Positions 55 to 60,749 of a DNA stretch of 64,000 bases are shown one piece after another. The notes beneath the pieces were generated by a model. The model was not told the DNA's origin. It searched no databases and was given only the letters and a program-made list of their open reading frames with translations. This stretch comes from Escherichia phage HP3. Positions within the stretch are counted from its first letter, which is position 1, and the number at the start of each line of letters is the position of its first letter. The stretch lies in sequence record NC_041919.1; one strand, given 5' to 3'. Position numbers and translations under genes: made by a program.

Positions 55-1068
55 ATGATGAAAACAGTAATGAAAAGCTATTTTGGTAGTCATCTTTATG
101 GAACTTCTACCCCAGAATCTGATGTAGATTTTAAAGAAATCTTTGTTCCTCCTGCTCGTGATATTCTTATCGGAAATGTTAAAGAGCACATGAGTAAAAA
201 CACTAACAACACATCATCTAAAAACACTAAAGATGATATTGACCATGAACTATACAGTCTTAAATATTTCTTTAAATTAGCAGCAGATGGTGAAACTGTA
301 GCGTTAGATATGCTTCACACTCCACCTGAACTAGTGGTTAAATCTGATTTGCCTGATGTGTGGAAGTTTATTCAAGACAACCGTTCTCGTTTTTATACGA
401 CTAACATGAAATCCTATTTAGGATATGTCCGTAAGCAAGCTTCTAAATACGGCGTTAAGGGTTCTCGTTTGGCTGCATTACGTGATGTATTGAAAGTAGT
501 TAATCAAATCCCTGAGCAATGGGTTGATTACCAAGAAGATGGTTCTATTAAGCAGCGTCGTACTAAAGTTGAAGATATTAAGCATCGTCTTCCAGAAAAC
601 GAATTCTGTGAATGGGTGTTCCATAATCATGAGAAAACAGGCCCACAGACGTTCTACACAGTGTTGGGTCGTAAATATCAGACAACGCTTTCTCTTATTG
701 AGCTTAAGCAGTCACTGAACAAATTAGATGCTGAATACGGTGAACGTGCTCGTAAGGCCGAAGCCAATGAAGGTATTGACTGGAAAGCTATGAGTCATGC
801 TTGCCGTGGTGGACTCCAACTATTGGAAATTTACAAAACTGGTGACTTGGTTTATCCACTCCAAGATGCTCCATTTATTCTCGACGTGAAGTTGGGTAAA
901 CATCCATTTAAAACGGTTCAAGAGTTTTTGGAAGATGTGGTCGATCAAGTAGAAGCAGCATCTACTGAAGCTTCTAAGAACGGTATGCAGCAAAAAGTAG
1001 ACATGGGTTTTTGGGATGACTTCCTTGAGAGGGTTTATCTTGAAAACCACCGAAGTTATTATAAATGA
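55..1068 (+). CDS. hypothetical protein, nucleotidyltransferase-fold candidate
   Basis: 337-aa ORF; N-terminal GSHLYGTSTPESDVD resembles the G[SG]..D.D minimal nucleotidyltransferase motif; AAGG RBS 6-9 nt upstream; hairpin terminator after stop. Confidence 0.6.
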   Translation: MMKTVMKSYFGSHLYGTSTPESDVDFKEIFVPPARDILIGNVKEHMSKNTNNTSSKNTKDDIDHELYSLKYFFKLAADGETVALDMLHTPPELVVKSDLPDVWKFIQDNRSRFYTTNMKSYLGYVRKQASKYGVKGSRLAALRDVLKVVNQIPEQWVDYQEDGSIKQRRTKVEDIKHRLPENEFCEWVFHNHEKTGPQTFYTVLGRKYQTTLSLIELKQSLNKLDAEYGERARKAEANEGIDWKAMSHACRGGLQLLEIYKTGDLVYPLQDAPFILDVKLGKHPFKTVQEFLEDVVDQVEAASTEASKNGMQQKVDMGFWDDFLERVYLENHRSYYK

Positions 1069-1070
1069 TA

Positions 1071-1098
1071 GGGAGCCTTCGGGCTCCCTTTTTTTATT
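1071..1098 (+). terminator. rho-independent terminator (GGGAGCC-TTCG-GGCTCCC + T8)
   Basis: 7-bp GC stem with UUCG tetraloop followed by T-run, directly after stop at 1068. Confidence 0.75.
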
Positions 1099-1119
1099 TC
1101 AAAAATTTTTCACAAAATT

Positions 1120-1149
1120 GTTTACAAGCATAAAGCTTTATGGTACTAT
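1120..1149 (+). promoter_or_regulatory. T4-type early (sigma70) promoter
   Basis: GTTTAC -35 at 1120-1125, 18-nt spacer, TGGTACTAT -10 at 1144-1149, A/T-rich upstream tract. Confidence 0.7.
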
Positions 1150-1186
1150 ACAACTATCAACTGATACGGATTTGGAGAATAAAATG
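1142..1186 (+). repeat. 45-nt conserved leader cassette (copy 1 of 3)
   Basis: GGTACTATACAACTATCAACTGATACGGATTTGGAGAATAAAATG; near-identical at 28211-28258 and 56072-56116. Confidence 0.85.
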
Positions 1187-2152
1187 AAAACTGTAACTAT
1201 CAATAAGGGTATCTACTTCGGTAAAGAAATCTCTGGAACTTTTGAGCTCTTAGGTGAATGGTTCCCAGATAATGCTCCGGTAGATGCACAAGGAGATGGT
1301 AAAGTTTTTGTTGAAATTGACGGTAAGCGTCGCGGTGTTTGGGTTTACAAATCAGACATTTCATATGATGGTGTAAAAGTTGAAGAAGTTAAAGAATCGT
1401 ATGAAGATATGAAAACCCGCATTAATAAAAGATTTAATGTTATGGGAATGATGACGAATGGTATTATTAACGGAAACATTCGTTCATTAATTATCTCTGG
1501 TGCGGCGGGTATTGGTAAAACGTATTCTTTAGATAAAGCTTTAAATAAAGCAAATGATATTGGATACATTGAATATAAAAGCATTAATGGTAAAATCTCT
1601 GGTATTGGTCTTTATGAGCAGCTTTGGAATAATCGTGAAGAGAATTCTGTACTTTTGATTGATGATGTGGATGTTTTCTCTGATATGGACATTCTTAATC
1701 TTCTGAAAGCTGCTCTGGACACCGGAGAGACCCGCAAAGTCTGCTGGAGCACTGCATCTTCTTACTTAGAAGAAAAAGGCATTGAGCGTGAGTTTGAATT
1801 TAAAGGAACGATTGTTTTTATCACAAACGTTGACATTGACCGCGAATTAGACCGTGGTACTAAACTTGCTCCACATTTACAAGCATTAGTTTCCCGCTCG
1901 GTTTATTTAGATTTGGGTGTTCACACTAATGAAGAAATTATGGTCAGGGTTGAAGATGTTATTCTTTCAACTGACATGATGCAAAAACGCGGTCTTTCTG
2001 ATGAAGAAACTTATAAAGCATTATCATGGATGAAAGTCAATGTTAATCGTTTACGCAATGTTTCACTGCGTACTGCACTTTATCTTGCTGACTTTATTAT
2101 GACCGACAAAAACGGTTGGGAAGAAATCGCTGAGGTTACTCTTCTGAAATAA
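1184..2152 (+). CDS. P-loop NTPase (AAA-like), hypothetical
   Basis: ATG at 1184 with GGAG RBS (track ORF 1016 is an upstream extension through the promoter); Walker A GAAGIGKT and Walker B LLIDDVD. Confidence 0.7.
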   Translation: MKTVTINKGIYFGKEISGTFELLGEWFPDNAPVDAQGDGKVFVEIDGKRRGVWVYKSDISYDGVKVEEVKESYEDMKTRINKRFNVMGMMTNGIINGNIRSLIISGAAGIGKTYSLDKALNKANDIGYIEYKSINGKISGIGLYEQLWNNREENSVLLIDDVDVFSDMDILNLLKAALDTGETRKVCWSTASSYLEEKGIEREFEFKGTIVFITNVDIDRELDRGTKLAPHLQALVSRSVYLDLGVHTNEEIMVRVEDVILSTDMMQKRGLSDEETYKALSWMKVNVNRLRNVSLRTALYLADFIMTDKNGWEEIAEVTLLK

Positions 2153-2253
2153 TTCATAAGAGGCCTTCTATGACAAAAAGGCAGTTCAGAAATAGATTAT
2201 ATGGACTGCCATCAAAAAGATGATTAGAATTAAACTGGTAAATGGAGGTAGTG

Positions 2254-2556
2254 ATGTTATACTCAAAGGCTCGTGAAATTTACGAAACTAAAATTAAAGA
2301 CGCGGTTCATCAGTTCGCAACGACAATGCGTTGGACAAATGACTGGGAATACTCCAAGAATCATAAGAAGCCCTTGGTGACAAGAAAGGCTCATATGTTA
2401 GTGTTAATAGACCGTGAGCAGATTAAAGCCCGAGAAGCCCTCCAGAATCATAAAAAGGCTGCCTTTGAATGGTTTATGGATAACACTGCTCCTGAGACTA
2501 AGAAAGCGGTAAGCGCATGGTTCAGTGGAAAAAATTGTGAAAGAAGTTTCTTTTAG
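2254..2556 (+). CDS. hypothetical protein (100 aa)
   Basis: second ATG of track ORF 2242, preceded by GGAGGT RBS. Confidence 0.5.
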   Translation: MLYSKAREIYETKIKDAVHQFATTMRWTNDWEYSKNHKKPLVTRKAHMLVLIDREQIKAREALQNHKKAAFEWFMDNTAPETKKAVSAWFSGKNCERSFF

Positions 2557-2558
2557 TG

Positions 2559-2588
2559 GTTTACAAGACTGTTCCTCTGTGGTACTAT
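2559..2588 (+). promoter_or_regulatory. T4-type early promoter within stem-loop cassette
   Basis: GTTTAC 2559-2564, TACTAT 2583-2588; inverted repeat TGTTCCTC (2570-2577) / GAGGAACA (2605-2612) brackets the -10. Confidence 0.65.
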
Positions 2589-2616
2589 ACAACTATCAAC
2601 TACGGAGGAACACAAA

Positions 2617-3144
2617 ATGAACGCTAAAGATATTTTCAACCTGGTAAATTACAACGATGGTAAATTTAAATCTGAAGCACAAAGCAAGTTCTTTAATGAC
2701 ATCTCAATCGGAGGTGAAATCACGGTTGACGGAGGACAAATTTACAAATCTCGTTGGAATTGGATCGTTATTATCGATGAGATTGGTATTGTAGAAATTT
2801 ACAAGAATACGAATAAAAATCGTACATTACACTGGTCTCGTGATACTAACGAACAGTACAAAAAGGATAAAGCATCTAAATTATCTCGTGTAACTCAAGA
2901 AGATATTGAGTTCATCAAGAAAGATATTTTGATGTATGATAACTTAATTGCTGAAGAGCAAGCTGTTATTGATAAATTTGATGAGATTAAAGCTTCTCGT
3001 GAAATTCCTGATTTTATGAAAGAATCAGTAAATGAACGATACACTCTCATTTCAGAGCGTATTGAAACTTACAAAAAGCAAAGAGCTGAACGCCAAAATA
3101 CTCTTCGGAAGTTTGAAGAACGGTTAAAGACGGTACTCGCATAA
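2617..3144 (+). CDS. hypothetical protein (175 aa)
   Basis: ORF with GGAGGAAC RBS upstream. Confidence 0.6.
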   Translation: MNAKDIFNLVNYNDGKFKSEAQSKFFNDISIGGEITVDGGQIYKSRWNWIVIIDEIGIVEIYKNTNKNRTLHWSRDTNEQYKKDKASKLSRVTQEDIEFIKKDILMYDNLIAEEQAVIDKFDEIKASREIPDFMKESVNERYTLISERIETYKKQRAERQNTLRKFEERLKTVLA

Positions 3145-9978: not shown

Positions 9979-11792
9979 CAATTGAAAAAGAAATTGAAGG
10001 ATTGATTCATAAAACTAATAAAGACCTTTTGAACGAGAATGCTAATAAAGATTCTCGTGTTTTTCCAACTCAACGGGACCTTATGGCTGGTATTGTGTCT
10101 AAACACATTGCCAAAAATATGGTCCCGTCTTTTATTATGAAAGCGCATGAAAGCGGAATTATTCATTTCCATGATATTGATTATTCCCCTGCTCTTCCAT
10201 TTACTAATTGTTGTTTAGTAGATTTAAAAGGAATGCTTGAGAACGGATTTAAGCTTGGTAATGCGCAGATTGAAACTCCTAAATCAATCGGTGTTGCTAC
10301 TGCAATTATGGCACAAATTACTGCACAGGTTGCTTCCCATCAATATGGCGGAACGACTTTTGCGAATGTAGATAAAGTACTTTCTCCTTATGTTAAACGC
10401 ACATATGCAAAACATATTGAGGATGCAGAAAAATGGCAAATCGCTGATGCGTTGAATTATGCTCAATCTAAAACAGAAAAAGACGTATACGATGCATTCC
10501 AAGCTTATGAATATGAAGTAAATACTCTCTTTAGTTCAAACGGACAAACACCTTTTGTAACAATTACATTTGGTACGGGAACTGACTGGACTGAACGAAT
10601 GATTCAGAAAGCAATTCTGAAAAATCGTATTAAAGGTCTTGGTCGTGATGGGATAACTCCTATTTTCCCTAAGCTTGTTATGTTTGTTGAAGAAGGTGTT
10701 AATCTTTATAAAGACGATCCGAACTATGATATTAAGCAGCTTGCTCTAGAGTGTGCAAGCAAAAGGATGTATCCTGATATTATTTCAGCTAAGAACAATA
10801 AAGCTATCACTGGTTCATCTGTTCCTGTTTCTCCAATGGGTTGCCGTAGTTTCTTGAGCGTATGGAAAGATTCGACTGGTAATGAAATTCTTGATGGACG
10901 TAATAATCTTGGTGTTGTAACACTGAATCTTCCTCGTATTGCGTTGGATTCTTATATTGGAACACAGTTCAATGAACAGAAATTTGTTAAATTATTCAAT
11001 GAGCGAATGGATTTATGTTTTGAAGCTTTGATGTGTAGAATTAGTTCCTTAAAAGGAGTTAAAGCGACTGTTGCTCCTATTCTTTACCAAGAAGGTGCAT
11101 TCGGGGTTCGTCTTAAACCTGATGACGATATAATTGAGTTATTTAAAAATGGTAGAAGTTCAGTGTCTTTAGGATACATTGGTATTCACGAATTGAATAT
11201 TCTTGTCGGTCGTGATATTGGACAGGAAATTTTAACTAAAATGAATGCTCGTCTTAAACAGTGGACTGAAAGAACTGGGTTTGCTTTTAGCTTGTATTCT
11301 ACTCCTGCTGAAAACCTTTGCTATCGCTTCTGTAAACTTGATACAGAAAAATATGGAAGTGTAAAGGATGTTACTGATAAAGGCTGGTACACTAACAGTT
11401 TCCATGTTTCAGTAGAAGAAAATATTACTCCGTTTGAAAAGATTTCTCGCGAAGCCCCGTATCATTTCATTGCAACAGGTGGTCACATTTCTTATGTTGA
11501 ACTTCCTGATATGAAAAATAACTTAAAAGGTCTTGAGGCTGTATGGGATTATGCTGCACAACATTTAGATTATTTTGGTGTTAATATGCCAGTAGATAAA
11601 TGTTTTACGTGTGGAAGTACCCATGAAATGACTCCTACTGAAAACGGGTTTGTTTGTTCTATTTGTGGAGAAACTGATCCTAAAAAGATGAACACAATAA
11701 GAAGAACATGCGGTTATTTGGGAAACCCGAACGAACGCGGATTTAATCTCGGTAAAAATAAAGAAATCATGCATAGGGTTAAACACCAATGA
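9975..11792 (+). CDS. nrdD: anaerobic ribonucleoside-triphosphate reductase NrdD
   Basis: 605 aa, C-terminal glycyl-radical motif RRTCGYLG and Cys cluster CFTCGS..CSICG; uninterrupted frame. Confidence 0.95.
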   Translation: MTIEKEIEGLIHKTNKDLLNENANKDSRVFPTQRDLMAGIVSKHIAKNMVPSFIMKAHESGIIHFHDIDYSPALPFTNCCLVDLKGMLENGFKLGNAQIETPKSIGVATAIMAQITAQVASHQYGGTTFANVDKVLSPYVKRTYAKHIEDAEKWQIADALNYAQSKTEKDVYDAFQAYEYEVNTLFSSNGQTPFVTITFGTGTDWTERMIQKAILKNRIKGLGRDGITPIFPKLVMFVEEGVNLYKDDPNYDIKQLALECASKRMYPDIISAKNNKAITGSSVPVSPMGCRSFLSVWKDSTGNEILDGRNNLGVVTLNLPRIALDSYIGTQFNEQKFVKLFNERMDLCFEALMCRISSLKGVKATVAPILYQEGAFGVRLKPDDDIIELFKNGRSSVSLGYIGIHELNILVGRDIGQEILTKMNARLKQWTERTGFAFSLYSTPAENLCYRFCKLDTEKYGSVKDVTDKGWYTNSFHVSVEENITPFEKISREAPYHFIATGGHISYVELPDMKNNLKGLEAVWDYAAQHLDYFGVNMPVDKCFTCGSTHEMTPTENGFVCSICGETDPKKMNTIRRTCGYLGNPNERGFNLGKNKEIMHRVKHQ

Positions 11793-17194: not shown

Positions 17195-17218
17195 AAACCA
17201 AAACAAAGAGGATATTAA

Positions 17219-18421
17219 ATGAAAGTATGTATTTTTATGGCTCGAGGTCTTGAAGGTTGTGGTGTAACAAAATTCTCACTCGAGCAACGTGATTGGTTTA
17301 TTAAGAATGGTCATGAAGTAACTTTGGTTTATGCTAAAGATAAATCATTTACTCGTACAAGTTCTCATGACCACAAATCATTTTCAATTCCAGTTATTTT
17401 AGCTAAAGAATACGATAAAGCACTTAAGCTGGTAAATGATTGTGATATTCTAATTATTAATTCTGTTCCTGCTACTTCCGTTCAAGAAGCCACGATTAAT
17501 AACTATAAAAAACTTTTAGATAATATTAAACCTTCTATTCGTGTTGTAGTTTATCAGCATGATCATTCTGTTCTTTCTTTGCGTCGAAATTTGGGATTAG
17601 AAGAAACTGTTCGTCGAGCTGATGTTATTTTTAGTCATTCTGATAATGGCGATTTTAATAAAGTTCTGATGAAAGAATGGTATCCAGAAACTGTTTCTCT
17701 GTTTGATGATATTGAAGAAGCACCAACAGTATATAATTTTCAGCCTCCTATGGATATTGCGAAAGTTCGATCAACCTACTGGAAAGATGTTTCTGAAATT
17801 AACATGAATATCAATCGTTGGATTGGTCGTACGACTACATGGAAAGGTTTTTACCAGATGTTTGATTTTCACGAAAAATTCTTAAAACCTGCTGGTAAAT
17901 CCACTGTAATGGAAGGTCTTGAACGTTCCCCTGCTTTTATTGCAATTAAGGAAAAAGGTATTCCGTATGAATATTACGGTAATCGTGAGATCGATAAAAT
18001 GAATCTCACGCCGAATCAACCGGCACAAATCCTAGATTGTTATATTAATAGTGAAATGCTTGAACGAATGAGTAAATCTGGCTTTGGATATCAGTTGAGT
18101 AAACTTAACCAGAAATACTTACAACGCTCACTAGAATATACTCATCTTGAATTAGGTGCTTGCGGTACAATTCCTGTTTTCTGGAAATCTACTGGCGAAA
18201 ATTTAAAATTCCGTGTTGATAATACTCCTTTGACCTCGCATGATAGCGGTATCATTTGGTTTGATGAAAATGACATGGAATCAACATTCGAGCGTATTAA
18301 AGAACTGTCATCTGACCGAGCTCTTTATGACCGTGAGCGAGAAAAAGCATATGAATTTTTGTATCAGCATCAAGATTCAAGCTTCTGCTTTAAAGAACAG
18401 TTTGACATTATTACAAAATAA
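17219..18421 (+). CDS. agt: DNA alpha-glucosyltransferase
   Basis: 400 aa; sequence (MKVCIFMARGLEGCGVTKFSLEQRDWFIKNGHEVTLVY...) matches remembered T4 alpha-gt. Confidence 0.9.
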   Translation: MKVCIFMARGLEGCGVTKFSLEQRDWFIKNGHEVTLVYAKDKSFTRTSSHDHKSFSIPVILAKEYDKALKLVNDCDILIINSVPATSVQEATINNYKKLLDNIKPSIRVVVYQHDHSVLSLRRNLGLEETVRRADVIFSHSDNGDFNKVLMKEWYPETVSLFDDIEEAPTVYNFQPPMDIAKVRSTYWKDVSEINMNINRWIGRTTTWKGFYQMFDFHEKFLKPAGKSTVMEGLERSPAFIAIKEKGIPYEYYGNREIDKMNLTPNQPAQILDCYINSEMLERMSKSGFGYQLSKLNQKYLQRSLEYTHLELGACGTIPVFWKSTGENLKFRVDNTPLTSHDSGIIWFDENDMESTFERIKELSSDRALYDREREKAYEFLYQHQDSSFCFKEQFDIITK

Positions 18422-24705: not shown

Positions 24706-25074
24706 ATGATTGAAATTACTCTTAAAAAACCTGAAGATTTTCTGAAAGTAAAAGAAACTTTGACTCGTATGGGAATTGCTAATAATAAAGATAAAGTTCT
24801 GTATCAGTCCTGTCATATTCTTCAGAAAAAAGGACTATACTATATCGTTCATTTTAAAGAAATGCTTCGTATGGATGGTCGCCAAGTTGAAATGACAGAA
24901 GAAGATGAAGTTCGTCGTGATTCGATTGCATGGCTGTTAGAAGATTGGGGACTGATTGAAATCGTTCCTGGTCAAAGAACTTTTATGAAAGATTTAACTA
25001 ATAATTTCCGAGTTATTTCTTTTAAACAAAAACATGAATGGAAACTCGTTCCTAAATATACGATTGGTAATTAA
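24706..25074 (+). CDS. regA: translational repressor RegA
   Basis: 122 aa; sequence matches remembered T4 RegA. Confidence 0.9.
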   Translation: MIEITLKKPEDFLKVKETLTRMGIANNKDKVLYQSCHILQKKGLYYIVHFKEMLRMDGRQVEMTEEDEVRRDSIAWLLEDWGLIEIVPGQRTFMKDLTNNFRVISFKQKHEWKLVPKYTIGN

Positions 25075-25075
25075 T

Positions 25076-25297
25076 ATGACTGCTATAACTCCGCAAGAAT
25101 ACATGGCGTCTCTTAAAGAAAAATATAATCTTTCTGCAACAGAAACACTTTTCGATTTACCAGAAAACCTTCAACTAAAATTTCAGGTAGAATTTCAAAA
25201 ATTAATTCACCCAGAACAAAAACACTTTACTGCAGTCGTTAAGTCAATTAATGCAGATGGAATGACAATTTTTCACCGACAAATAGTACTAATTTAA
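25076..25297 (+). CDS. hypothetical protein (73 aa)
   Basis: ATG 25076 (internal Met of track ORF 25034), TAATATG junction with regA. Confidence 0.45.
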   Translation: MTAITPQEYMASLKEKYNLSATETLFDLPENLQLKFQVEFQKLIHPEQKHFTAVVKSINADGMTIFHRQIVLI

Positions 25298-28072: not shown

Positions 28073-28085
28073 TAGAATAAATCTA

Positions 28086-28106
28086 GGGACCTCCGGGTCC
28101 CTTTTT
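28086..28106 (+). terminator. rho-independent terminator (GGGACC-TCCG-GGTCCC + T5)
   Basis: hairpin plus T-run after gene 43. Confidence 0.7.
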
Positions 28107-28188
28107 CATACAAGTAATATAAATCTATACTTATGAAAAACAGATGATTCTGGACATTTAGAATTCCCTAAAAAATTTTCACAAAACT

Positions 28189-28218
28189 GTTTACATCTCT
28201 GTTCTTCCATGGTACTAT
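28189..28218 (+). promoter_or_regulatory. T4-type early promoter
   Basis: GTTTAC 28189-28194, TACTAT 28213-28218, A/T-rich upstream tract. Confidence 0.7.
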
Positions 28219-28258
28219 ACAACTATCAACTACTGATACGGATTTGGAGAATAAAATG
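28211..28258 (+). repeat. conserved leader cassette (copy 2 of 3)
   Basis: same as 1142-1186 with a 3-nt insertion; ends in ATG of the downstream ORF. Confidence 0.85.
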
Positions 28259-28492
28259 AAAATTGTTATGGGTTGCTTAGCAGTTTGTTTAGTTGCATTA
28301 GCAGCAGTTCCATTTGTTAGTGTTGAAAATGATACTCAACCTGTGATTGAATCTAGCACTGTTATTCACACTAATGGTAAAATATCAGTTAAAATTGATG
28401 ATAATCTTCATGTGAATACAAATGGATCTTTAGGTGTGCAAATGGGTAATACCTGCATAAGCACTACTGGAGTAATTACTACTTGTATTTGA
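28256..28492 (+). CDS. hypothetical secreted/membrane protein (78 aa)
   Basis: ATG 28256; N-terminal signal-like segment MKIVMGCLAVCLVALAAVPF. Confidence 0.5.
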   Translation: MKIVMGCLAVCLVALAAVPFVSVENDTQPVIESSTVIHTNGKISVKIDDNLHVNTNGSLGVQMGNTCISTTGVITTCI

Positions 28493-29295: not shown

Positions 29296-30036
29296 ATGAT
29301 TAGTGACTCTATGACAGTTGAAGAAATCCGTCTTCATTTGGGGCTTGCATTAAAAGAAAAAGATTTCGTAGTTGATAAAACTGGTGTTAAAACTATTGAA
29401 ATTATTGGCGCATCATTTGTAGCAGATGAACCGTTTATTTTTGGCGCTCTTAATGATGAATACATTCAGCGTGAACTTGAATGGTATAAATCTAAGAGTT
29501 TGTTTGTTAAAGATATTCCAGGTGAAACACCAAAGATTTGGCAGCAGGTAGCATCTTCTAAAGGCGAAATTAACTCGAATTATGGTTGGGCTATTTGGTC
29601 AGAAGATAACTATGCCCAGTATGATATGTGTTTAGCTGAACTTGGTCAAAATCCTGATTCTCGACGTGGTATCATGATTTATACTCGTCCATCTATGCAG
29701 TTTGACTACAATAAAGATGGTATGTCAGATTTCATGTGTACTAATACAGTACAGTACTTGATTCGTGATAAGAAAGTCAATGCGGTAGTAAGCATGCGCT
29801 CAAATGACGTGGTCTTCGGATTCCGTAATGATTATGCATGGCAAAAATACGTATTAGATAAATTAGTATCTGATTTGAATGCAGGCGATTCAACTCGTCA
29901 GTATAAAGCAGGTTCTATTATATGGAATGTTGGAAGTCTTCATGTATATTCTCGTCATTTTTATTTGGTTGATCATTGGTGGAATACTGGCGAAACTCAT
30001 ATTGTGAAAAAAGACTATAAAGGTGAGTGGAAATGA
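29296..30036 (+). CDS. 42: dCMP hydroxymethylase gp42
   Basis: 246 aa; thymidylate-synthase-like fold sequence matching remembered T4 gp42. Confidence 0.95.
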   Translation: MISDSMTVEEIRLHLGLALKEKDFVVDKTGVKTIEIIGASFVADEPFIFGALNDEYIQRELEWYKSKSLFVKDIPGETPKIWQQVASSKGEINSNYGWAIWSEDNYAQYDMCLAELGQNPDSRRGIMIYTRPSMQFDYNKDGMSDFMCTNTVQYLIRDKKVNAVVSMRSNDVVFGFRNDYAWQKYVLDKLVSDLNAGDSTRQYKAGSIIWNVGSLHVYSRHFYLVDHWWNTGETHIVKKDYKGEWK

Positions 30037-30875
30037 TTCAATTCGTAATTCCAAGTTATCAACGTGTCGGGGCAGTTTCTGCCCTTAATATGTTTCCGAC
30101 TGATTATGAACCCCATATTGTGGTGCGTGAACACGAAGAAAAAGCTTATTATGATGCTTATGGGTCTAGAGCTAAAATTGTAACTATTCCTGATGATGTT
30201 AATGGAATTGCCGGTACTCGTAAAGCAATTACTGATATGTATGCAGGTCAACGAATCTGGATGATTGATGATGATACTACTATTCGTATGAGTTCAATAC
30301 GAAAGAGAGACGATAAACGGCGTGTAGATAAAATTAATCAATTAACTCGTGAACAGTTCTATGAATTAATTCAATACGTTGAAGATGCCATGGATTGCGG
30401 GTATTATCACGGTCATGCTCGTCTACCAATTTTTAAAATTACTTCATCTTGGGGCAATTATCGTGAAAACTCATATGGATTCACGAATACATGGTATGAC
30501 CTCGGAAAACTTACGACAGAACAAATTGGGTATGGAAAAATTGATTTATGCGAAGATATGTATGCATTTCTCAATTTAATTAATCAAGGTTATCCGCATT
30601 TGGCCTTGTTCAAATATCTAGTTGTATCTGGAAAATCACACGCTCCCGGTGGGTGTAGTTCAATTCGTAGTAATTCTAAACATAATAGAGCGCTTGAGCA
30701 AATCAATAGAGAGTTTCCAGAGCAAGCTCGTTGGAAAACATCGAATATTGAAAAACGAAAATCGTTGGGTGAAGAAGACGAGCCATTAAAGGTTCTTCGC
30801 ATGTGTGTTTCGCGTAAAGAAAAATCAGAAGCATTTCATAAGTTTAATGCTATTCATCCAATAGCAGTTGATTAA
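30033..30875 (+). CDS. glycosyltransferase at the beta-gt locus (candidate beta-glucosyl-HMC-alpha-glucosyltransferase)
   Basis: 280 aa from ATG 30033 (ATGA overlap with gene 42); DxD-like WMIDDDTT motif; unrelated to remembered T4 beta-gt sequence (351 aa). Confidence 0.65.
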   Translation: MIQFVIPSYQRVGAVSALNMFPTDYEPHIVVREHEEKAYYDAYGSRAKIVTIPDDVNGIAGTRKAITDMYAGQRIWMIDDDTTIRMSSIRKRDDKRRVDKINQLTREQFYELIQYVEDAMDCGYYHGHARLPIFKITSSWGNYRENSYGFTNTWYDLGKLTTEQIGYGKIDLCEDMYAFLNLINQGYPHLALFKYLVVSGKSHAPGGCSSIRSNSKHNRALEQINREFPEQARWKTSNIEKRKSLGEEDEPLKVLRMCVSRKEKSEAFHKFNAIHPIAVD

Positions 30876-30899
30876 TGCCTAAATTTATTGTGTTATAAT
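30874..30899 (+). promoter_or_regulatory. possible middle promoter upstream of uvsX
   Basis: imperfect MotA box ATGCCTAAA (30875-30883), 10-nt spacer, TATAAT (30894-30899). Confidence 0.3.
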
Positions 30900-30952
30900 T
30901 ACTATATCTTTAACCAGTGAGGAAAATATAATGATGCCTATGGAAAAAATGA

Positions 30953-32134
30953 ATGTCTATTGCAGATTTAAAATCCCGTTTGATTAAAGCTTCCACTTCT
31001 AAAATGACTGCTGAACTGACTACATCTAAATTCTTTAATGAAAAGGATGTAATTCGTACAAAAATTCCAATGCTTAATATCGCTATTTCTGGTGCGATTG
31101 ATGGCGGTATGCAGTCTGGTTTAACTATTTTTGCAGGGCCTTCTAAACACTTTAAATCAAATATGTCTTTGACTATGGTTGCGGCATATTTGAACAAATA
31201 TCCTGACGCGGTTTGTCTATTCTATGATAGCGAATTTGGTATTACTCCAGCTTATTTGCGATCCATGGGAGTTGACCCGGAACGTGTAATTCATACGCCA
31301 ATTCAATCAGTTGAACAGCTGAAAATTGATATGGTGAATCAGCTTGAAGCTATTGAGCGTGGTGAAAAAGTTATTGTATTCATCGATTCAATTGGTAATA
31401 TGGCTTCTAAGAAAGAAACTGAAGATGCCTTGAATGAAAAATCTGTGGCAGATATGACTCGTGCTAAATCACTGAAGTCATTATTCCGTATCGTTACTCC
31501 TTATTTTAGCATTAAAAATATTCCATGCGTTGCGGTTAACCATACAATTGAAACAATTGAAATGTTTAGTAAAACCGTGATGACAGGTGGTACAGGCGTA
31601 ATGTATTCGGCTGATACCGTATTCATTATCGGTAAGCGTCAGATTAAAGATGGTTCTGATCTTCAGGGGTATCAATTTGTTCTAAATGTAGAAAAATCTC
31701 GTACCGTTAAAGAAAAAAGTAAATTCTTTATTGATGTTAAATTTGACGGTGGTATCGATCCTTATTCTGGATTGTTAGATATGGCTCTAGAATTAGGATT
31801 TGTAGTAAAACCTAAGAATGGTTGGTATGCTCGTGAATTTCTTGACGAAGAAACCGGCGAGATGATTCGCGAAGAAAAATCTTGGCGTGCAAAAGATACT
31901 AACTGCACTACATTCTGGGGTCCTTTATTTAAGCATCAACCATTCCGAGATGCTATTAAACGTGCTTATCAGTTAGGTGCTATTGATAGTAATGAAATTG
32001 TTGAAGCTGAAGTTGATGAATTGATTAACTCAAAGGTTGAAAAATTTAAATCTCCAGAAAGTAAAAGTAAATCAGCTGCTGATTTAGAAACTGACCTCGA
32101 ACAGTTAAGTGATATGGAAGAATTTAATGAATAA
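30953..32134 (+). CDS. uvsX: recombinase UvsX (RecA-like)
   Basis: 393 aa; Walker A GPSKHFKS; matches remembered T4 UvsX. Confidence 0.95.
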   Translation: MSIADLKSRLIKASTSKMTAELTTSKFFNEKDVIRTKIPMLNIAISGAIDGGMQSGLTIFAGPSKHFKSNMSLTMVAAYLNKYPDAVCLFYDSEFGITPAYLRSMGVDPERVIHTPIQSVEQLKIDMVNQLEAIERGEKVIVFIDSIGNMASKKETEDALNEKSVADMTRAKSLKSLFRIVTPYFSIKNIPCVAVNHTIETIEMFSKTVMTGGTGVMYSADTVFIIGKRQIKDGSDLQGYQFVLNVEKSRTVKEKSKFFIDVKFDGGIDPYSGLLDMALELGFVVKPKNGWYAREFLDEETGEMIREEKSWRAKDTNCTTFWGPLFKHQPFRDAIKRAYQLGAIDSNEIVEAEVDELINSKVEKFKSPESKSKSAADLETDLEQLSDMEEFNE

Positions 32135-36809: not shown

Positions 36810-36828
36810 ACAAATTTCATAAATTTGT
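36810..36828. repeat. perfect palindrome ACAAATTT-CAT-AAATTTGT
   Basis: 8-bp inverted repeat with 3-nt centre, abutting the -35 of the promoter at 36827. Confidence 0.9.
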
Positions 36829-36856
36829 TTACTTTCTCAGCTTGTTATGGTATTAT
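36827..36856 (+). promoter_or_regulatory. T4-type early promoter
   Basis: GTTTAC 36827-36832, TGGTATTAT -10 at 36851-36856. Confidence 0.65.
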
Positions 36857-36881
36857 AAAATAAATTGCTGAGGATGATATA

Positions 36882-38221
<1,340 letters not shown>

Positions 38222-38281: not shown

Positions 38282-38800
38282 ATGGCTTACTTTAACGAAT
38301 GTAGTCAACTGATCGAAGGCGCTGATAAAGCTCAAAATGAATACTGGGATATTCTCGGTGATGAAAAAGACCCGCTGCAAGTTATGCTTGATATGCAGAA
38401 ATCTTTGCAGGTTCGTTTAGCTAAAGATAAACCTGAATATAACCGTCATCCTGATGATTTGGCTACTGCAGGCGAAGTTGTCGATTGGCTGCGTAATCAG
38501 AAAGATTACATTGATGATGAATTCCGCGAACTATTGACTTCTCTTGGTGGTATGAGCAATGGTGAAAAAGATGCATCTGCTGTATGGAAGCCTTGGAAGT
38601 CGCAGCATGGTGAACGTCGTGAAACTCTAATTACTGATTTGTCACCACAAGACCAATTGGAAATTAAATTCGAAATGATTGATATTCTTCATTTCGTTCT
38701 GAACATGTTCCAAGGTCTCGGTCTTACGGCTGAAGAAATCTTTAAACTTTATTATCTGAAAAATGCTGAAAACTTCGCTCGTCAAGACCGAGGTTATTAA
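38282..38800 (+). CDS. 56: dCTPase/dUTPase gp56 (MazG-like)
   Basis: 172 aa from ATG 38282; position next to dam. Confidence 0.8.
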   Translation: MAYFNECSQLIEGADKAQNEYWDILGDEKDPLQVMLDMQKSLQVRLAKDKPEYNRHPDDLATAGEVVDWLRNQKDYIDDEFRELLTSLGGMSNGEKDASAVWKPWKSQHGERRETLITDLSPQDQLEIKFEMIDILHFVLNMFQGLGLTAEEIFKLYYLKNAENFARQDRGY

Positions 38801-39000
38801 TGGCTCGTTTAAATAAACGCCAGCTTAAGAAAGCCCACAAGAAACGTATTGACCAGCTATTTAAAAATTATGACAAGGAGCTCACATACGAGCTCCTATC
38901 TAATCAGCTCCACAAAGCTTACACAATTAAAACTGGACATATACAATTAGGTAAGGTGCATGAAGAAGCCTTAAAATTAATTATAGAGCATTCAAAATGA
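38800..39000 (+). CDS. hypothetical basic protein (66 aa)
   Basis: ORF with TAATG overlap with gene 56. Confidence 0.5.
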   Translation: MARLNKRQLKKAHKKRIDQLFKNYDKELTYELLSNQLHKAYTIKTGHIQLGKVHEEALKLIIEHSK

Positions 39001-39020
39001 AATTTGATTTTTATGCATGG

Positions 39021-39046
39021 CAAAAAGCCGGGAGACCGGCTTTTTG
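39021..39046 (+). terminator. rho-independent terminator
   Basis: AAAAAGCCGG-GAGA-CCGGCTTTTT, symmetric A/T flanks. Confidence 0.6.
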
Positions 39047-39184
39047 AGCATTTGGTTCTGATGGATATAATATTAGAGCTCATTGGAAGTTTAATGCTCC
39101 AGCCGATTATTCTCCGGTAATTATTAACGGTGATGTTGTTATATTAACTAAAATTGGGTATTTTAACGTTCCGCAAGAATTTAT

Positions 39185-39192
39185 TATAAATA
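39185..39192 (+). promoter_or_regulatory. late promoter (TATAAATA) for soc
   Basis: exact TATAAATA about 30 nt upstream of soc ATG. Confidence 0.7.
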
Positions 39193-48261: not shown

Positions 48262-48291
48262 AGTTTAAAATTTTTTCATAAAACTATATAC

Positions 48292-48334
48292 ATCAGTAGT
48301 TGATTATGGTACTATATCAATATCAACTACTGAT
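48292..48334. repeat. perfect 13-bp inverted repeat enclosing a -10-like element
   Basis: ATCAGTAGTTGAT (48292-48304), 17-nt loop TATGGTACTATATCAAT, ATCAACTACTGAT (48322-48334). Confidence 0.9.
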
Positions 48335-48432
48335 ACAGAAAACAACTTGGAGAATAAAATGGATAATTCGTTAAAGGTGCGCTGATACTCTTCTGAAACG
48401 CATCGCTCCAATGTTCAATTAATGAGGAAATT

Positions 48433-48651
48433 ATGATGAAACGTAAAATTATTCAGAATTGCACTAATGATGAATTTGAAGATGTGTTATTCGATCCAGA
48501 TTTGGTAGTAGTTCAAAAGGAACACACTGCTAAGTTTACTCACTTGACTTCGGTTTATGTGTATGAAAAGGTTGGGGATAAACAACCAATTTACGGTGTA
48601 TTTCGTGAAATCACTGAAGATGGTACAACTTACTGGAAGGAAATTTATTAA
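48433..48651 (+). CDS. hypothetical protein (72 aa)
   Basis: ORF after GAGGAAATT. Confidence 0.5.
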
Positions 48652-55475: not shown

Positions 55476-56033
55476 ATGCAGAAAACGAATCCGGGGTTAC
55501 AGAGACTATTTCAGATTCCGACATTTACCCTATCGAACAGTGACTTGACTAGTGAAATGAAGGTCAAAATTGTTGATACTGCAAGATACTCTTTAAAACA
55601 AAACCCAAATCAGGATAAGGCAGAAGTTATCGAAAGATGCCGTATCGCTGTGTACGCAGAGTTTTTTGTAGCAGATTGGCTGAGCGGGTATGTTAACAAA
55701 GGTCAAGAAGATGTCGATGATCCGTACACATATGCATGGGATGTATTGGCGCATCCAAGATACTGCGGGCTTCGTGTAGAAGTTAAGACACATCAAACTG
55801 ACTCACGTTGGATTTCGGTGACAACAGGATGCAGTGGAGAGTATCCATATGGTTCTGGAATAAATCTAGGGCCCATTCTAAATCATCAAGTCGCTGACTG
55901 TATAATTATATTCAACACTAAAGAAATTCATCCAGGTGTCATCCAATACACTCCGAAGTTCATCGGTGATAGAGAAGACCTTCGTAAGGTTGTAAGAAAA
56001 AGCAACTACAGCGGATGGTATCTTTCCATTTAA
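55476..56033 (+). CDS. denB: endonuclease IV DenB-like
   Basis: 185 aa; size and position downstream of rIIB fit T4 denB. Confidence 0.7.
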   Translation: MQKTNPGLQRLFQIPTFTLSNSDLTSEMKVKIVDTARYSLKQNPNQDKAEVIERCRIAVYAEFFVADWLSGYVNKGQEDVDDPYTYAWDVLAHPRYCGLRVEVKTHQTDSRWISVTTGCSGEYPYGSGINLGPILNHQVADCIIIFNTKEIHPGVIQYTPKFIGDREDLRKVVRKSNYSGWYLSI

Positions 56034-56049
56034 AAAATTTCACAAAATG

Positions 56050-56079
56050 GTTTACATACCACAAGGACCGTGGTACTAT
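56050..56079 (+). promoter_or_regulatory. T4-type early promoter
   Basis: GTTTAC 56050-56055, TACTAT 56074-56079. Confidence 0.7.
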
Positions 56080-56116
56080 ACAACTATCAACTGATACGGA
56101 TTTGGAGAGTAAAATG
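56072..56116 (+). repeat. conserved leader cassette (copy 3 of 3)
   Basis: 44/45 identical to 1142-1186, including RBS and ATG. Confidence 0.85.
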
Positions 56117-56377
56117 AAATTTAAATTTTATTATGCTAAGCATAAAATAACTGATGAGTTTGTGTCAGTTGAATATTCTAGCGATGATGAAGGCATGATT
56201 TATACTCGCTTAGGATTATCGCATTGGGAGTCCGATCAGCCTTATTTTTCAACTCCTGAAGAAATTACACGCTTAGTTAATGGTCATATGAATGACCACT
56301 GGAATGTAATTCTTTCAGATAGTCTTAAAGAGGCTATTAATAGTAATGAAATGAAAATCGTTGAGATTGAACTATGA
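56114..56377 (+). CDS. hypothetical protein (87 aa)
   Basis: ATG 56114 inside track ORF 56015. Confidence 0.5.
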   Translation: MKFKFYYAKHKITDEFVSVEYSSDDEGMIYTRLGLSHWESDQPYFSTPEEITRLVNGHMNDHWNVILSDSLKEAINSNEMKIVEIEL

Positions 56378-56562
56378 GTTCATTATGGTGGTGTTTTGTT
56401 TGGTTAATTAGTATTCCAGTAATTTGTTTAACATTTACTTTTGTGATGAGGTTATTATGAAAATTTTGAATTCTGTACTTATTGCTTGTGCGTGGTGGGT
56501 TGCACAGGTTTCAGCGGTAGTAGTTGGTATTCACATTTATTACGAATATTTTTAAAAAAGTT

Positions 56563-56592
56563 GTTTACAAGACTGTTCTTCCGTGGTACTAT
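56563..56592 (+). promoter_or_regulatory. T4-type early promoter within stem-loop cassette
   Basis: GTTTAC 56563-56568, TACTAT 56587-56592; TGTTCTTCC (56574-56582) / GGAGGAACA (56608-56616). Confidence 0.65.
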
Positions 56593-56620
56593 TACCCTAT
56601 CAACTACGGAGGAACAGAAA

Positions 56621-56734
56621 ATGAAAAAGATTATTAAAGCTATATGGAATGTAGTTATAATACTAATAGTTTTGAGTATATTCCCAATCGTTTTAATGAT
56701 TGATGTATTAAACGTTTACTTTGGATTTATGTGA
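56621..56734 (+). CDS. hypothetical small membrane peptide (37 aa)
   Basis: ATG 56621 after GGAGGAAC; hydrophobic. Confidence 0.35.
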   Translation: MKKIIKAIWNVVIILIVLSIFPIVLMIDVLNVYFGFM

Positions 56735-59645: not shown

Positions 59646-59650
59646 TTTTA

Positions 59651-59680
59651 GGGAGAGCCGAGGCTCTCCCTTTTTTATTT
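59651..59680 (+). terminator. rho-independent terminator (GGGAGAGCC-GA-GGCTCTCCC + T6)
   Basis: 9-bp stem plus T-run. Confidence 0.75.
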
Positions 59681-59701
59681 CAAAAATTTTTTCACAAAAC
59701 G

Positions 59702-59731
59702 GTTTACAACCAAAGCATACTGTGGTACTAT
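59702..59731 (+). promoter_or_regulatory. T4-type early promoter
   Basis: GTTTAC 59702-59707, TACTAT 59726-59731. Confidence 0.7.
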
Positions 59732-59780
59732 ACAACTATCAAATAAATGAACTGAAACAAACAACCCGGAGATACAAAAA

Positions 59781-60008
59781 ATGAAATTTAAAATCGAAAA
59801 CGAAATCGTTAAAGCTAAAAATGCTCTGACTGCTAACAAACTGGTTGTAGATGGTATTGAATATGATATCTGTGGAGTTCGTGAAGAAAAACCTGGTGTT
59901 CTGACTTTCTTCACAATGATTTTTAAATTTAAAGGTGACACAGAATTCAAACAGTTTGATTTTGCCCATGAAGACGAAATCGAAGTTCGTAATCTGAACA
60001 TTAAGTAA
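59781..60008 (+). CDS. hypothetical protein (75 aa)
   Basis: ORF after CCGGAGATAC. Confidence 0.5.
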   Translation: MKFKIENEIVKAKNALTANKLVVDGIEYDICGVREEKPGVLTFFTMIFKFKGDTEFKQFDFAHEDEIEVRNLNIK

Positions 60009-60047
60009 GTACTTTATTAGAGCTCTTGAAAAAGAGTGCAAAAAAGT

Positions 60048-60076
60048 GTTTACTTCTGCTTTAAACATGATACTAT
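60048..60076 (+). promoter_or_regulatory. T4-type early promoter (motA)
   Basis: GTTTAC 60048-60053, TACTAT 60071-60076. Confidence 0.65.
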
Positions 60077-60113
60077 AGACCTATCAAATAAATGAACTGA
60101 AACGGAGATTAAA

Positions 60114-60749
60114 ATGTCTAAAGTAACTTACATCATCAAAGCTTCTAACGATGTTCTGAATGAAAAAACTGCTGCGATTTTAATTACCATTGCTAAGAAA
60201 GATTTCATTACAGCCGCAGAAGTTCGTGAGGTGCATCCAGATTTAGGTAATGCAGTAGTTAATAGTAATATTGGGGTATTGATTAAAAAAGGCCTGGTGG
60301 AGAAATCTGGTGATGGATTAATCATTACTGGTGAAGCTCAGGATATTATTTCAAATGCAGCAACTTTATACGCACAGGAAAACGCTCCGGAACTGCTGAA
60401 AAAACGAGCAACTCGTAAAGCTCGTGAGATTACTTCTGATATGGAAGAAGATAAAGACTTCATGTTAAAACTTTTAGATGAAAATGGATTTGTTCTTAAA
60501 AAGGTTGAAACTTACCGCAGTAACTATCTCGCTATTTTAGAAAAACGCACTCACGGAATTCGTAATTTTGAAATTAACAACAATGGAAATATGCGAATTT
60601 TTGGATACAAAATGATGGAACATCATATTCAGAAATTTACTGACATCGGAATGTCATGTAAAATCGCTAAAAACGGTAATGTGTATCTTGACATTAAACG
60701 CTCGGCAGAAAACATTGAAGCTGTAATCACTGTAGCATCTGAACTGTGA
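60114..60749 (+). CDS. motA: middle-transcription activator MotA
   Basis: 211 aa; matches remembered T4 MotA. Confidence 0.9.
   Translation: MSKVTYIIKASNDVLNEKTAAILITIAKKDFITAAEVREVHPDLGNAVVNSNIGVLIKKGLVEKSGDGLIITGEAQDIISNAATLYAQENAPELLKKRATRKAREITSDMEEDKDFMLKLLDENGFVLKKVETYRSNYLAILEKRTHGIRNFEINNNGNMRIFGYKMMEHHIQKFTDIGMSCKIAKNGNVYLDIKRSAENIEAVITVASEL

Follow-up and report, generated by a model that had tools for sequence, protein, structure and literature searches.

T4-type phages carry promoter-early stem-loop elements (PeSLs), which have been described in RB49 and phi1 (Arbiol et al. 2010, PMC2839356) and in the pairs PST/T4 and nt-1/KVP40 (Comeau et al. 2014, PMC4122927). Sequencing of RB49 mini-circles placed crossovers between the -10 and the SD/ATG (PMC2839356). 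The PST/T4 elements have the same composition and role, with stem-loops just upstream of a promoter that follows the consensus TTTACW-N17-TAYWAT (PMC4122927). Early promoters of T4 have been assigned to an 'uber UP/-35/TGn/-10' class with 'additional regions of consensus' (PMC2988021); on the published numbering, GTTTAC lies at -36 to -31, with T at -12, A at -11, and T at -7 (PMC1524935). In T4, the optimal target of RegB with ribosomal protein S1 is GGAGAAUAAAA, with the consensus GGAGRAYARAA, in which GGA is invariant (Durand et al. 2006, PMC1702504), and the site needs a single-stranded GGAG region (PMC1702504; Uzan and Miller 2010, PMC3014915). RegB cleaves the motA mRNA well and the nrdC.8 mRNA moderately (PMC1702504).

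We analyzed a stretch of 64,000 nt, referred to here as the window. Positions 900-3000 match Escherichia phage HP3.1 with 100% identity and hundreds of Tequatrovirus genomes with 97-99%; judged by this similarity, the source of the window is a Tequatrovirus. In local BLAST comparisons with T4, the window starts at mobD/nrdC.11 (T4 56.4 kb), continues through genes 43, 41, 39, and rIIA/B, and reaches the end of gene 38 (tail fiber) and holin gene t, just past asiA, at its far end (T4 160.2 kb). The window + strand is the T4 early-gene strand and carries about 18-20 early promoters, eight of which have a TACTAT...CTATCAA core in common.

The eight cassettes built on this core are an ordinary, already known feature and no new kind of element. 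We put at roughly 0.88 the probability that the published PeSL model accounts for them, as T4-type early promoter-leader cassettes, timed by RegB, that double as joints for gene shuffling. Like PeSLs, they join an AT-rich region, an early promoter, and an SD with a start codon at the 3' end, at some copies together with a terminator hairpin, and they cluster in hyperplastic regions where small ORFs without a known function have been replaced, gained, or lost. The copies conform to the PST/T4 consensus, and the stem-loop just upstream of the promoter recurs at cassettes 1, 3, and 6. Mini-circle formation was demonstrated in RB49/phi1 only. T4 has early promoters of near-identical sequence at the orthologous positions (nrdC.10, nrdC.8, imm.1, ndd.6, and motA), with the same UP element, -35 GTTTAC, TGn, -10 TAnnAT, and conserved region around +1, and with no essential difference; HP3.1 departs from T4 just in the small ORF after three cassettes and in an extra promoter before motA.

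Early promoter cassettes as a dispersed repeat family

An initial annotation had described a 45-nt block, spanning the -10, leader, RBS, and ATG, that recurs almost exactly at 1142-1186, 28211-28258, and 56072-56116 before unrelated genes, with shorter variants at 2581-2619, 56585-56623, 59723-59783, and 60068-60116. All seven sites were present at these positions. The block occurred with 0 mismatches at 1142-1186 and with one (A>G, GGAGAGTAAAATG) at 56072-56116; the copy at 28211-28258 is the block plus a 3-nt insertion (CAACTACTGATAC), and the shorter variants matched their description. Shuffles of the window that preserved dinucleotides gave an expectation of 0 for the 45-mer. A 19-mer, GGTACTATACAACTATCAA, was found exactly at five sites and with three mismatches at 48308 and 60069 (0.03 expected), and the pattern GTTTAC-N14-22-TACTAT-N4-CTATCAA occurred seven times, always on the + strand (0 expected). 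In an unbiased repeat search within the window, the cassettes made up the largest dispersed repeat family (D1, D2, D5, and D7). The family is a real, non-chance feature.

A three-mismatch match to the 19-mer, together with an exact GGAGAATAAAA, located an eighth copy at 48263-48361 that was not among the seven. The 45-nt block recurs as described, but the repeat unit is larger than had been proposed, beginning about 60 nt upstream with a UP element and the -35 GTTTAC. Table 1 lists the features.

Table 1. Predicted cassettes, their parts, and cassette-bounded ORFs in the window
Feature	Position	Strand	Elements and context
Intrinsic terminator of nrdC.11	1070..1096	+	AGGGAGCC-TTCG-GGCTCCCT plus T-run; -17.5 kcal/mol; T4 U76612.1 annotation
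Cassette 1, 5' of nrdC.10	1100..1186	+	UP 1100-1119; -35 GTTTAC 1120-1125; TGG+TACTAT 1141-1149; CTATCAA 1154-1160; leader type L1; GGAGAATAAAA 1174-1184; ATG 1184-1186
Cassette 2, 5' of nrdC.8	2541..2619	+	-35 2559-2564; TGGTACTATACAACTATCAA; leader L2 CTACGGAGGAACACAAA; ATG 2617-2619
Cassette 3	28085..28258	+	terminator 28085-28103 after gene 43; -35 28189-28194; -10 28210-28218; leader L1 with 3-nt insertion; GGAGAATAAAA 28246-28256; ATG 28256-28258
ORF-C	28256..28492	+	78 aa; accessory; between cassette 3 ATG and imm.1 (28503); phrog_4189, function unknown
Cassette 8, motB-cef intergenic	48263..48385	+	degenerate -35 ATATAC 48286-48291; TGGTACTAT 48307-48315; leader CTACTGATACAGAAAACAACTT; GGAGAATAAAA 48349-48359; same GGAGAATAAAATG as other copies; ATG at 48359 opens just an 8-codon ORF (ends 48385); cef start 48433
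Cassette 4, directly 3' of denB, 5' of ORF-A	56032..56116	+	-35 56050-56055; leader L1 with one A>G change (GGAGAGTAAAATG); ATG 56114-56116
ORF-A	56114..56377	+	87 aa; accessory; overlaps ndd.6 start at 56374; phrog_2390
Cassette 5, ndd.4/ndd.5 region, 5' of small membrane ORF	56545..56623	+	-35 56563-56568; TGGTACTAT-TACC-CTATCAA, then leader L2; ATG 56621-56623
Cassette 6	59650..59783	+	terminator 59650-59676; -35 59702-59707; -10 59723-59731; CTATCAA 59736-59742; leader type L3; ATG 59781-59783
ORF-E	59781..60008	+	75 aa; accessory; between cassettes 6 and 7; phrog_10955
Cassette 7, 5' of motA	60020..60116	+	degraded hairpin 60020-60039; -35 60048-60053; TGATACTAT-AGAC-CTATCAA; shortened leader L3; GGAGATTAAAATG; ATG 60114-60116

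Anchored alignment of the copies and their orthologues gave the order A/T tract, GTTTAC, spacer, TGG TACTAT, N4, CTATCAA, leader, GGAG, and ATG. All copies lie on the + (early) strand, directly 5' of ORFs. The -35 is an exact GTTTAC in seven of the eight copies, with a 14-15-nt spacer to the TGn, and is ATATAC in copy 8; the extended -10 is TGG TACTAT (TGGTACTAT) in seven copies and TGA TACTAT in copy 7. Between the -10 and CTATCAA, the N4 is ACAA, TACC, or AGAC. An A/T-rich UP tract resembling AAAAATTTTTCACAAAA precedes five of the seven originally listed copies and the eighth copy, and is weaker before nrdC.8 and motA. About six A-rich bases separate GGAG from the ATG, and AAA often comes next after the ATG. 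An A-rich sequence after the start codon is favoured, with which the frequent AAA second codon is consistent.

Judged by these motifs, the cassettes are T4-type early promoters, and the T4 literature and annotation predict that they are active. At copy 1, between nrdC.11 and nrdC.10, the T4 record U76612.1 annotates the terminator, the -35, and the -10, with the note 'early promoter 54.4'; -35 and -10 signals are also annotated for the copy before nrdC.8. CTATCAA hardly varies among the copies in the alignment, where TTATCAA occurs once. On the published numbering it would occupy -2 to +5, placing the predicted +1 at its first A (A1156 in cassette 1).

The ORFs downstream of the cassettes are unrelated, as had been claimed: pairwise blastp E-values were all >0.01, and the five ORFs scanned fell into different PHROGs, all of unknown function. 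The ORF begins with MK after five of the seven listed cassettes, with MN in nrdC.8 and with MS in motA. Paralogy of the downstream genes was rejected as the source of the likeness near the ATG, given an all-versus-all blastp without significance and PHROGs that differ among the five ORFs scanned.

We scanned 120 nt 5' of 17 promoters for hairpins, including six of the seven listed cassettes; cassette 8 lay outside the scan. A clear hairpin followed by a T-run was found 21 nt upstream of cassette 1, where the nrdC.11 terminator, 21 nt 5' of the -35, serves as the stem-loop part, and also at cassettes 6 (21 nt) and 3 (85 nt). The hairpin at cassette 7 is degraded, and no convincing terminator was present in the 120 nt upstream of cassettes 2, 4, and 5. 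The description of the family as stem-loop cassettes therefore holds in part. The promoter, SD, and start codon fit the PeSL definition, but a clear upstream terminator accompanies just 3-4 of the 8 copies, in which the family differs from published PeSLs. The hairpin was rejected as a universal cassette part, clear terminators occurring at only some of the 17 promoters scanned. It had also been pointed out that the block extends into the start of the coding sequence; this is correct and agrees with the PeSL definition, under which the element ends with the SD and the start codon of the gene downstream (PMC2839356, PMC4122927).

Leader identity and the predicted RegB/S1 site

The leaders are about 25-45 nt long. 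The 3' end of the 45-nt block, GGAGAATAAAA, whose last A is the A of the ATG, occurs exactly at 1174, 28246, and 48349 (0.29 expected) and is identical to the T4 RegB/S1 optimum; copy 4 has one mismatch (GGAGAGUAAAA). RegB of HP3.1 (HP31_0220), encoded ~6 kb outside the window, is identical to T4 RegB at 152/153 residues. The L2 leader (GGAGGAACAC) has its counterpart in T4 nrdC.8, whose mRNA is moderately cut. The predicted targets in the cassettes resemble the T4 RegB/S1 targets in the 11-nt site, the unstructured translation-initiation region of an early gene, and the presence of an encoded RegB, and differ in the copy 4 mismatch and in the L2 form. The 3' third of the block is predicted to be dual-purpose, acting as ribosome-binding site and, if the T4 literature applies, as a RegB/S1 target.

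The identity of leaders before unrelated genes, which the initial annotation had described, is real. Missing from that account was RegB/S1 function, which with the GGAG would explain much of the identity: the leaders are alike in part because of function, as GGAG is the RBS and the 11-nt GGAGAAUAAAA the predicted RegB/S1 site. The 5' half of leader L1, CTGATACGGATTT, to which no function has been assigned, is identical between copies as well. Leaders of TATAAT-type early promoters contain a related CTACTGA motif as CTACTGAGGAG.

The recurrence of CTACTGA in other early leaders, and the near identity of a ~27-nt leader before three unrelated genes, could also be expected if the downstream genes were regulated together through a structured cis-regulatory RNA such as a riboswitch, an attenuator, or a protein-binding operator. 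Yet six leaders folded no better than shuffles (z -0.4 to +1.4; MFE 0 to -3.2 kcal/mol), and an Rfam scan of the whole window at gathering thresholds returned no family match. The leaders are also too short for a riboswitch, and cleavage by RegB/S1 requires an unstructured GGAG region (PMC3014915). Based on the folding and the Rfam scan, we rejected a structured leader RNA, which is the least probable of the explanations considered.

Identity is unevenly distributed within the cassettes. In the three near-identical copies, the leader is identical at 25 of 26 positions, and the 15-nt spacers are only ~50% alike. Diverged spacers next to an identical leader fit selection on functional islands as well as recombination. 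An alternative is that the likeness reflects pure functional convergence on a shared optimal promoter, RBS, RegB site, and A-rich start, with no role in shuffling. Together, the promoter consensus, GGAGAAUAAAA, and ATGAAA make up about two thirds of the 45-nt block. Moreover, in Gelderlandvirus STML-198, which belongs to another genus, the block from -10 to ATG is 95.7% conserved beside an nrdC.10 homologue, where the flanks no longer align. Convergence does not account for the 5' half of L1, identical between copies without a known function, and it is further weakened by the comparisons with related phages described below.

Gene insertion, loss, and replacement in related phages

We compared the window with T4, T2, ECML-134, teqdroes, bov9_1, BGP, and one Dhakavirus. 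Small ORFs of unknown function were inserted, deleted, or replaced, with junctions within cassettes, at CTATCAA, in the leader, or at ATGAAA. Segments flanked by cassettes were not invariant among the aligned relatives, and breakpoints fell in cassettes at nrdC.10, imm.1, ndd.6, and motA.

At nrdC.10, two extra genes are present in ECML-134 and AV119 and a different one in teqdroes, all between the cassette 1 promoter and nrdC.10. Compared base by base, ECML-134 loses its identity with the window immediately 3' of CTATCAA (window 1160). The AV119 match ends at the same query position, and teqdroes has diverged already within the promoter. In ECML-134, nrdC.10 is preceded by a second cassette of its own.

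At imm.1, T4 has the same cassette directly on the gene, without ORF-C. ORF-C was found in 315 of 517 records and was missing in the sampled remainder; it is absent from T4, RB3, RB32, and ECML-134 and is replaced in T2. In the window, ORF-C has ATGAAAAT at both ends. By eye, the N terminus of ORF-C is hydrophobic, a possible signal sequence. In T2, the imm.1 site contains other ORFs, and its cassette has a 63-nt exact run, spacer included, in common with the nrdC.8 cassette ~25 kb away.

The ndd.6 site exists in four allelic states: no ORF in T4, ORF-A in the window, ORF-B in T2, and ORF-B followed by ORF-A in bov9_1, with all joints at ...GAG(A/T)nTAAAATG(AAA). In T4, the cassette is followed by an 8-codon mini-ORF, MKIAEIEL, to which the last eight codons of ORF-A, MKIVEIEL, correspond. 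The end of ORF-B, CGGATTATTGAGTAAAATG, resembles the 3' half of the leader. At the junction of ORF-B and ORF-A in bov9_1, 16 nt (GAGTAAAATGAAATTT) are identical to the variant copy 4 of the window. This suggests that the A>G change in copy 4 may have come from in-register exchange with the GAGTAAAATG junction before ORF-A in bov9_1, with point mutation as a possible alternative. The mini-ORFs after two cassettes (48359 and the T4 ndd.6 site) are probably deletion scars rather than genes.

A tentative extension, which we consider possible but doubtful, is that promoterless ORFs are captured and lost preferentially, and in register, at the leader-RBS-ATG(AAA) end and not at the promoter or the hairpin. 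If so, a newly acquired gene would at once obtain strong early expression and RegB-timed shut-off, and losses would leave translated mini-ORF scars such as the 8-codon ORFs at 48359 and the T4 ndd.6 site. On this view, the conserved 5' half of the leader (AUCAACU(AC)UGAUACGGAUUU) would chiefly be retained to supply homology for recombination; alternatively, it may act in promoter escape or mRNA stability.

At motA, T4 has one cassette. In the window, a promoter designated D is joined at CTATCAA to another leader, followed by ORF-E, a degraded hairpin, and a second promoter. ORF-E sits between CTATCAA and the motA leader and is flanked by a 23-nt exact direct repeat, CTATCAAATAAATGAACTGAAAC, present in cassettes 6 and 7, which would be a substrate for the excision of mini-circles. 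The ORF-E module occurs in 126 phage records and is absent from T4 and T2. In Dhakavirus EcWhh-1, an ORF-E that is 94% identical lies between two copies of a promoter designated E, with homology to the window beginning at the -10, which is evidence for a module, apparently bounded by cassettes, that is common to Tequatrovirus and Dhakavirus. Phage BGP has yet another ORF at the motA site. Elsewhere, a 540-nt insert (36815-37354) has ATCACAAA, which belongs to the UP-element motif, at its boundaries.

Of 17 indels that distinguish the window from T4, four have a boundary in an early-promoter cassette (1.08 expected, P ~0.02), although the P value is only indicative, the random-placement control being lenient since viable indels favour intergenic sites. 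The other 13 lie away from cassettes, and several of them correspond to homing-endonuclease genes of T4 or to an intron. Some junctions contain just 8-10 nt of microhomology and could be ordinary illegitimate deletions that used the A-rich start region. The combination of spacer type and leader type varies across sites and phages; such reassortment is the expected trace of exchange inside cassettes.

These comparisons bear on the convergence explanation. The 63-nt exact run between the T2 imm.1-site cassette and the nrdC.8 cassette includes a non-consensus spacer, the junctions left by indels and replacements at four loci lie precisely inside sub-elements of the cassettes, and promoter halves and leader halves have been reassorted. 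Furthermore, cassette recombination was shown experimentally in RB49/phi1 (PMC2839356). Pure convergence is therefore unlikely, although selection and recombination both operate on the cassettes.

We also considered a dedicated mobile element, in which an invariant core, CTATCAA or the hairpin, would be the site of a phage site-specific recombinase, in the manner of an integron. Several junctions lie right after the nearly invariant CTATCAA, and the authors of the PeSL work speculated about a helper protein (PMC2839356). However, the junctions are scattered over the UP element ATCACAAA, CTATCAA, mid-leader, and ATGAAA, which excludes the single fixed crossover point of site-specific recombination, and they are in register with homology, as general or microhomology recombination predicts. 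As CTATCAA would span -2 to +5 of the promoter, its promoter position explains its invariance. No recombinase is linked to the cassettes, and we regard a dedicated mobile element as very unlikely.

The PeSL interpretation, including the proposal in the initial annotation that the cassettes are recombination substrates, is supported by the Tequatrovirus identity of the window, the T4 annotation, and the junctions inside cassettes. From the junctions between genomes, read in light of the PeSL model, we infer how and in which direction each recombination event took place.

A proposed role of the cassettes as standardized early-gene signals

Each cassette combines a predicted very strong sigma-70 promoter with a standard translation start, the two being separated by a short leader that lacks structure, and the terminator of the preceding gene often lies upstream. 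In the proposed mode of action, host RNA polymerase would fire the promoters immediately on infection, and the open GGAG start region would give strong translation. Minutes later, RegB and ribosomal protein S1 would cut inside the GGAG of GGAGAAUAAAA and turn off the early mRNA. As the same 20-90 nt stand before many unrelated, mostly dispensable genes, they would also act as portable joints for the efficient homologous and microhomology recombination of the phage, as in the published PeSL model of modular shuffling. Small genes could in this way be inserted, deleted, replaced, or given the leader of another cassette, with the expression signals kept.

As a functional analogy only, the cassettes recall those of integrons, where small accessory genes, promoterless or with minimal signals, are exchanged at short joints under a resident expression signal. 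Here, in contrast, there is no integrase, no folded site resembling attC, and no fixed crossover point. The joint consists of promoter, leader, and start codon, and the exchange appears to proceed by general or microhomology recombination.

To the published description of PeSLs, this analysis adds an eighth copy in the window, the exact match to the RegB/S1 site, a four-state locus joined at the leader/ATG, the two mini-ORFs that resemble deletion scars, and the evidence for a module common to Tequatrovirus and Dhakavirus. For annotation, the cassettes would mark real early transcription units and flag mini-ORFs that are probable deletion scars. T4-type phages would standardize the signals of their accessory early genes, with one cassette providing transcription, translation, timed mRNA inactivation, and a patch of homology, and the cassettes would explain the small-ORF differences among near-identical therapeutic phages such as HP3.1.

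Cassettes that open short reading frames

In T4 (167019-166993), the cassette before ndd.6, an early promoter with leader, ribosome-binding site and start codon, opens an ORF of eight codons, MKIAEIEL, that overlaps the ndd.6 start. The same codons form the C terminus (56354-56377) of ORF-A, the 87-aa accessory gene that follows the corresponding cassette in the window. The T4 mini-ORF is probably the scar of an in-frame deletion through AAATGAAA microhomology.

Another short ORF lies behind cassette 8 (see the table), where a perfect GGAGAATAAAATG opens only eight codons in the window and 11 codons in the T4 counterpart. The true gene downstream of this cassette is cef, which starts at 48433 and has its own ribosome-binding site. 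Cassette 8 looks like a cassette without a gene, its own having been lost.

Coordinates of cassette 8, the intervals that differ from T4 and the UUCG hairpins
Feature	Window positions	Location or character
Cassette 8	48263-48385	motB-cef intergenic region; degenerate -35, ATATAC
Intervals differing from T4 at mobile-DNA segments	10510-10513, 17203-17228, 30018-30965, 38763-39185, 51370-51435	
UUCG-tetraloop hairpins	14768, 18408, 23118, 25288, 49871, 55152, 55387	

Insertions and missing segments relative to T4

Compared with T4, the window carries a 540-nt insert at 36815-37354, which contains an early promoter at 36827 and an ORF start (ATG near 36881). The insert is bounded by an 8-nt direct repeat, ATCACAAA, that is part of the UP-element motif, and at the same site T4 retains a degenerate promoter remnant, GTATTACTATCAA.

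Three segments that carry mobile DNA in T4 are missing from the window: the interval with the I-TevII gene (nrdD intron), the mobB segment, and the mobA/60.1/gene-60 bypass cassette, whose absence leaves the 39-60 interval far shorter than that of T4. In place of the intervals that in T4 contain segA/beta-gt and segF, the window has shorter, non-matching sequence. The regA-gene 43 boundary (25043-25294) is approximately 220 nt longer in the window, an excess that may be partly an alignment-end artefact, since the two T4 loci used for comparison were divided at this boundary.

The hairpin at 25288 also falls within this region. It belongs to a second dispersed repeat family in the window, consisting of GC-rich hairpins capped by a UUCG tetraloop (AAGGGCTTCGGCCCTT). 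They probably serve, between early and middle genes, as terminators or as stem-loops that stabilise mRNA.

The nrdC.10 cassette and its product

In the Gelderlandvirus Salmonella phage STML-198 (NC_027344.1; 701-750 and 950-1020), a 59-aa ORF is preceded by a 95.7% identical copy of the 47-nt block from the -10 element to the ATG. A second cassette (CGGAGAATAAAATG) follows this ORF and precedes the nrdC.10 homologue; the flanks are too diverged for alignment.

NrdC.10 itself (window 1184-2152) shows weak similarity to AAA/STAND NTPase domains, its AAA_14 match (E = 5.8e-05) scoring 23.5 bits, below the 27-bit cut-off. Many GenBank records label nrdC.x genes "thioredoxin", apparently through carry-over of annotation.
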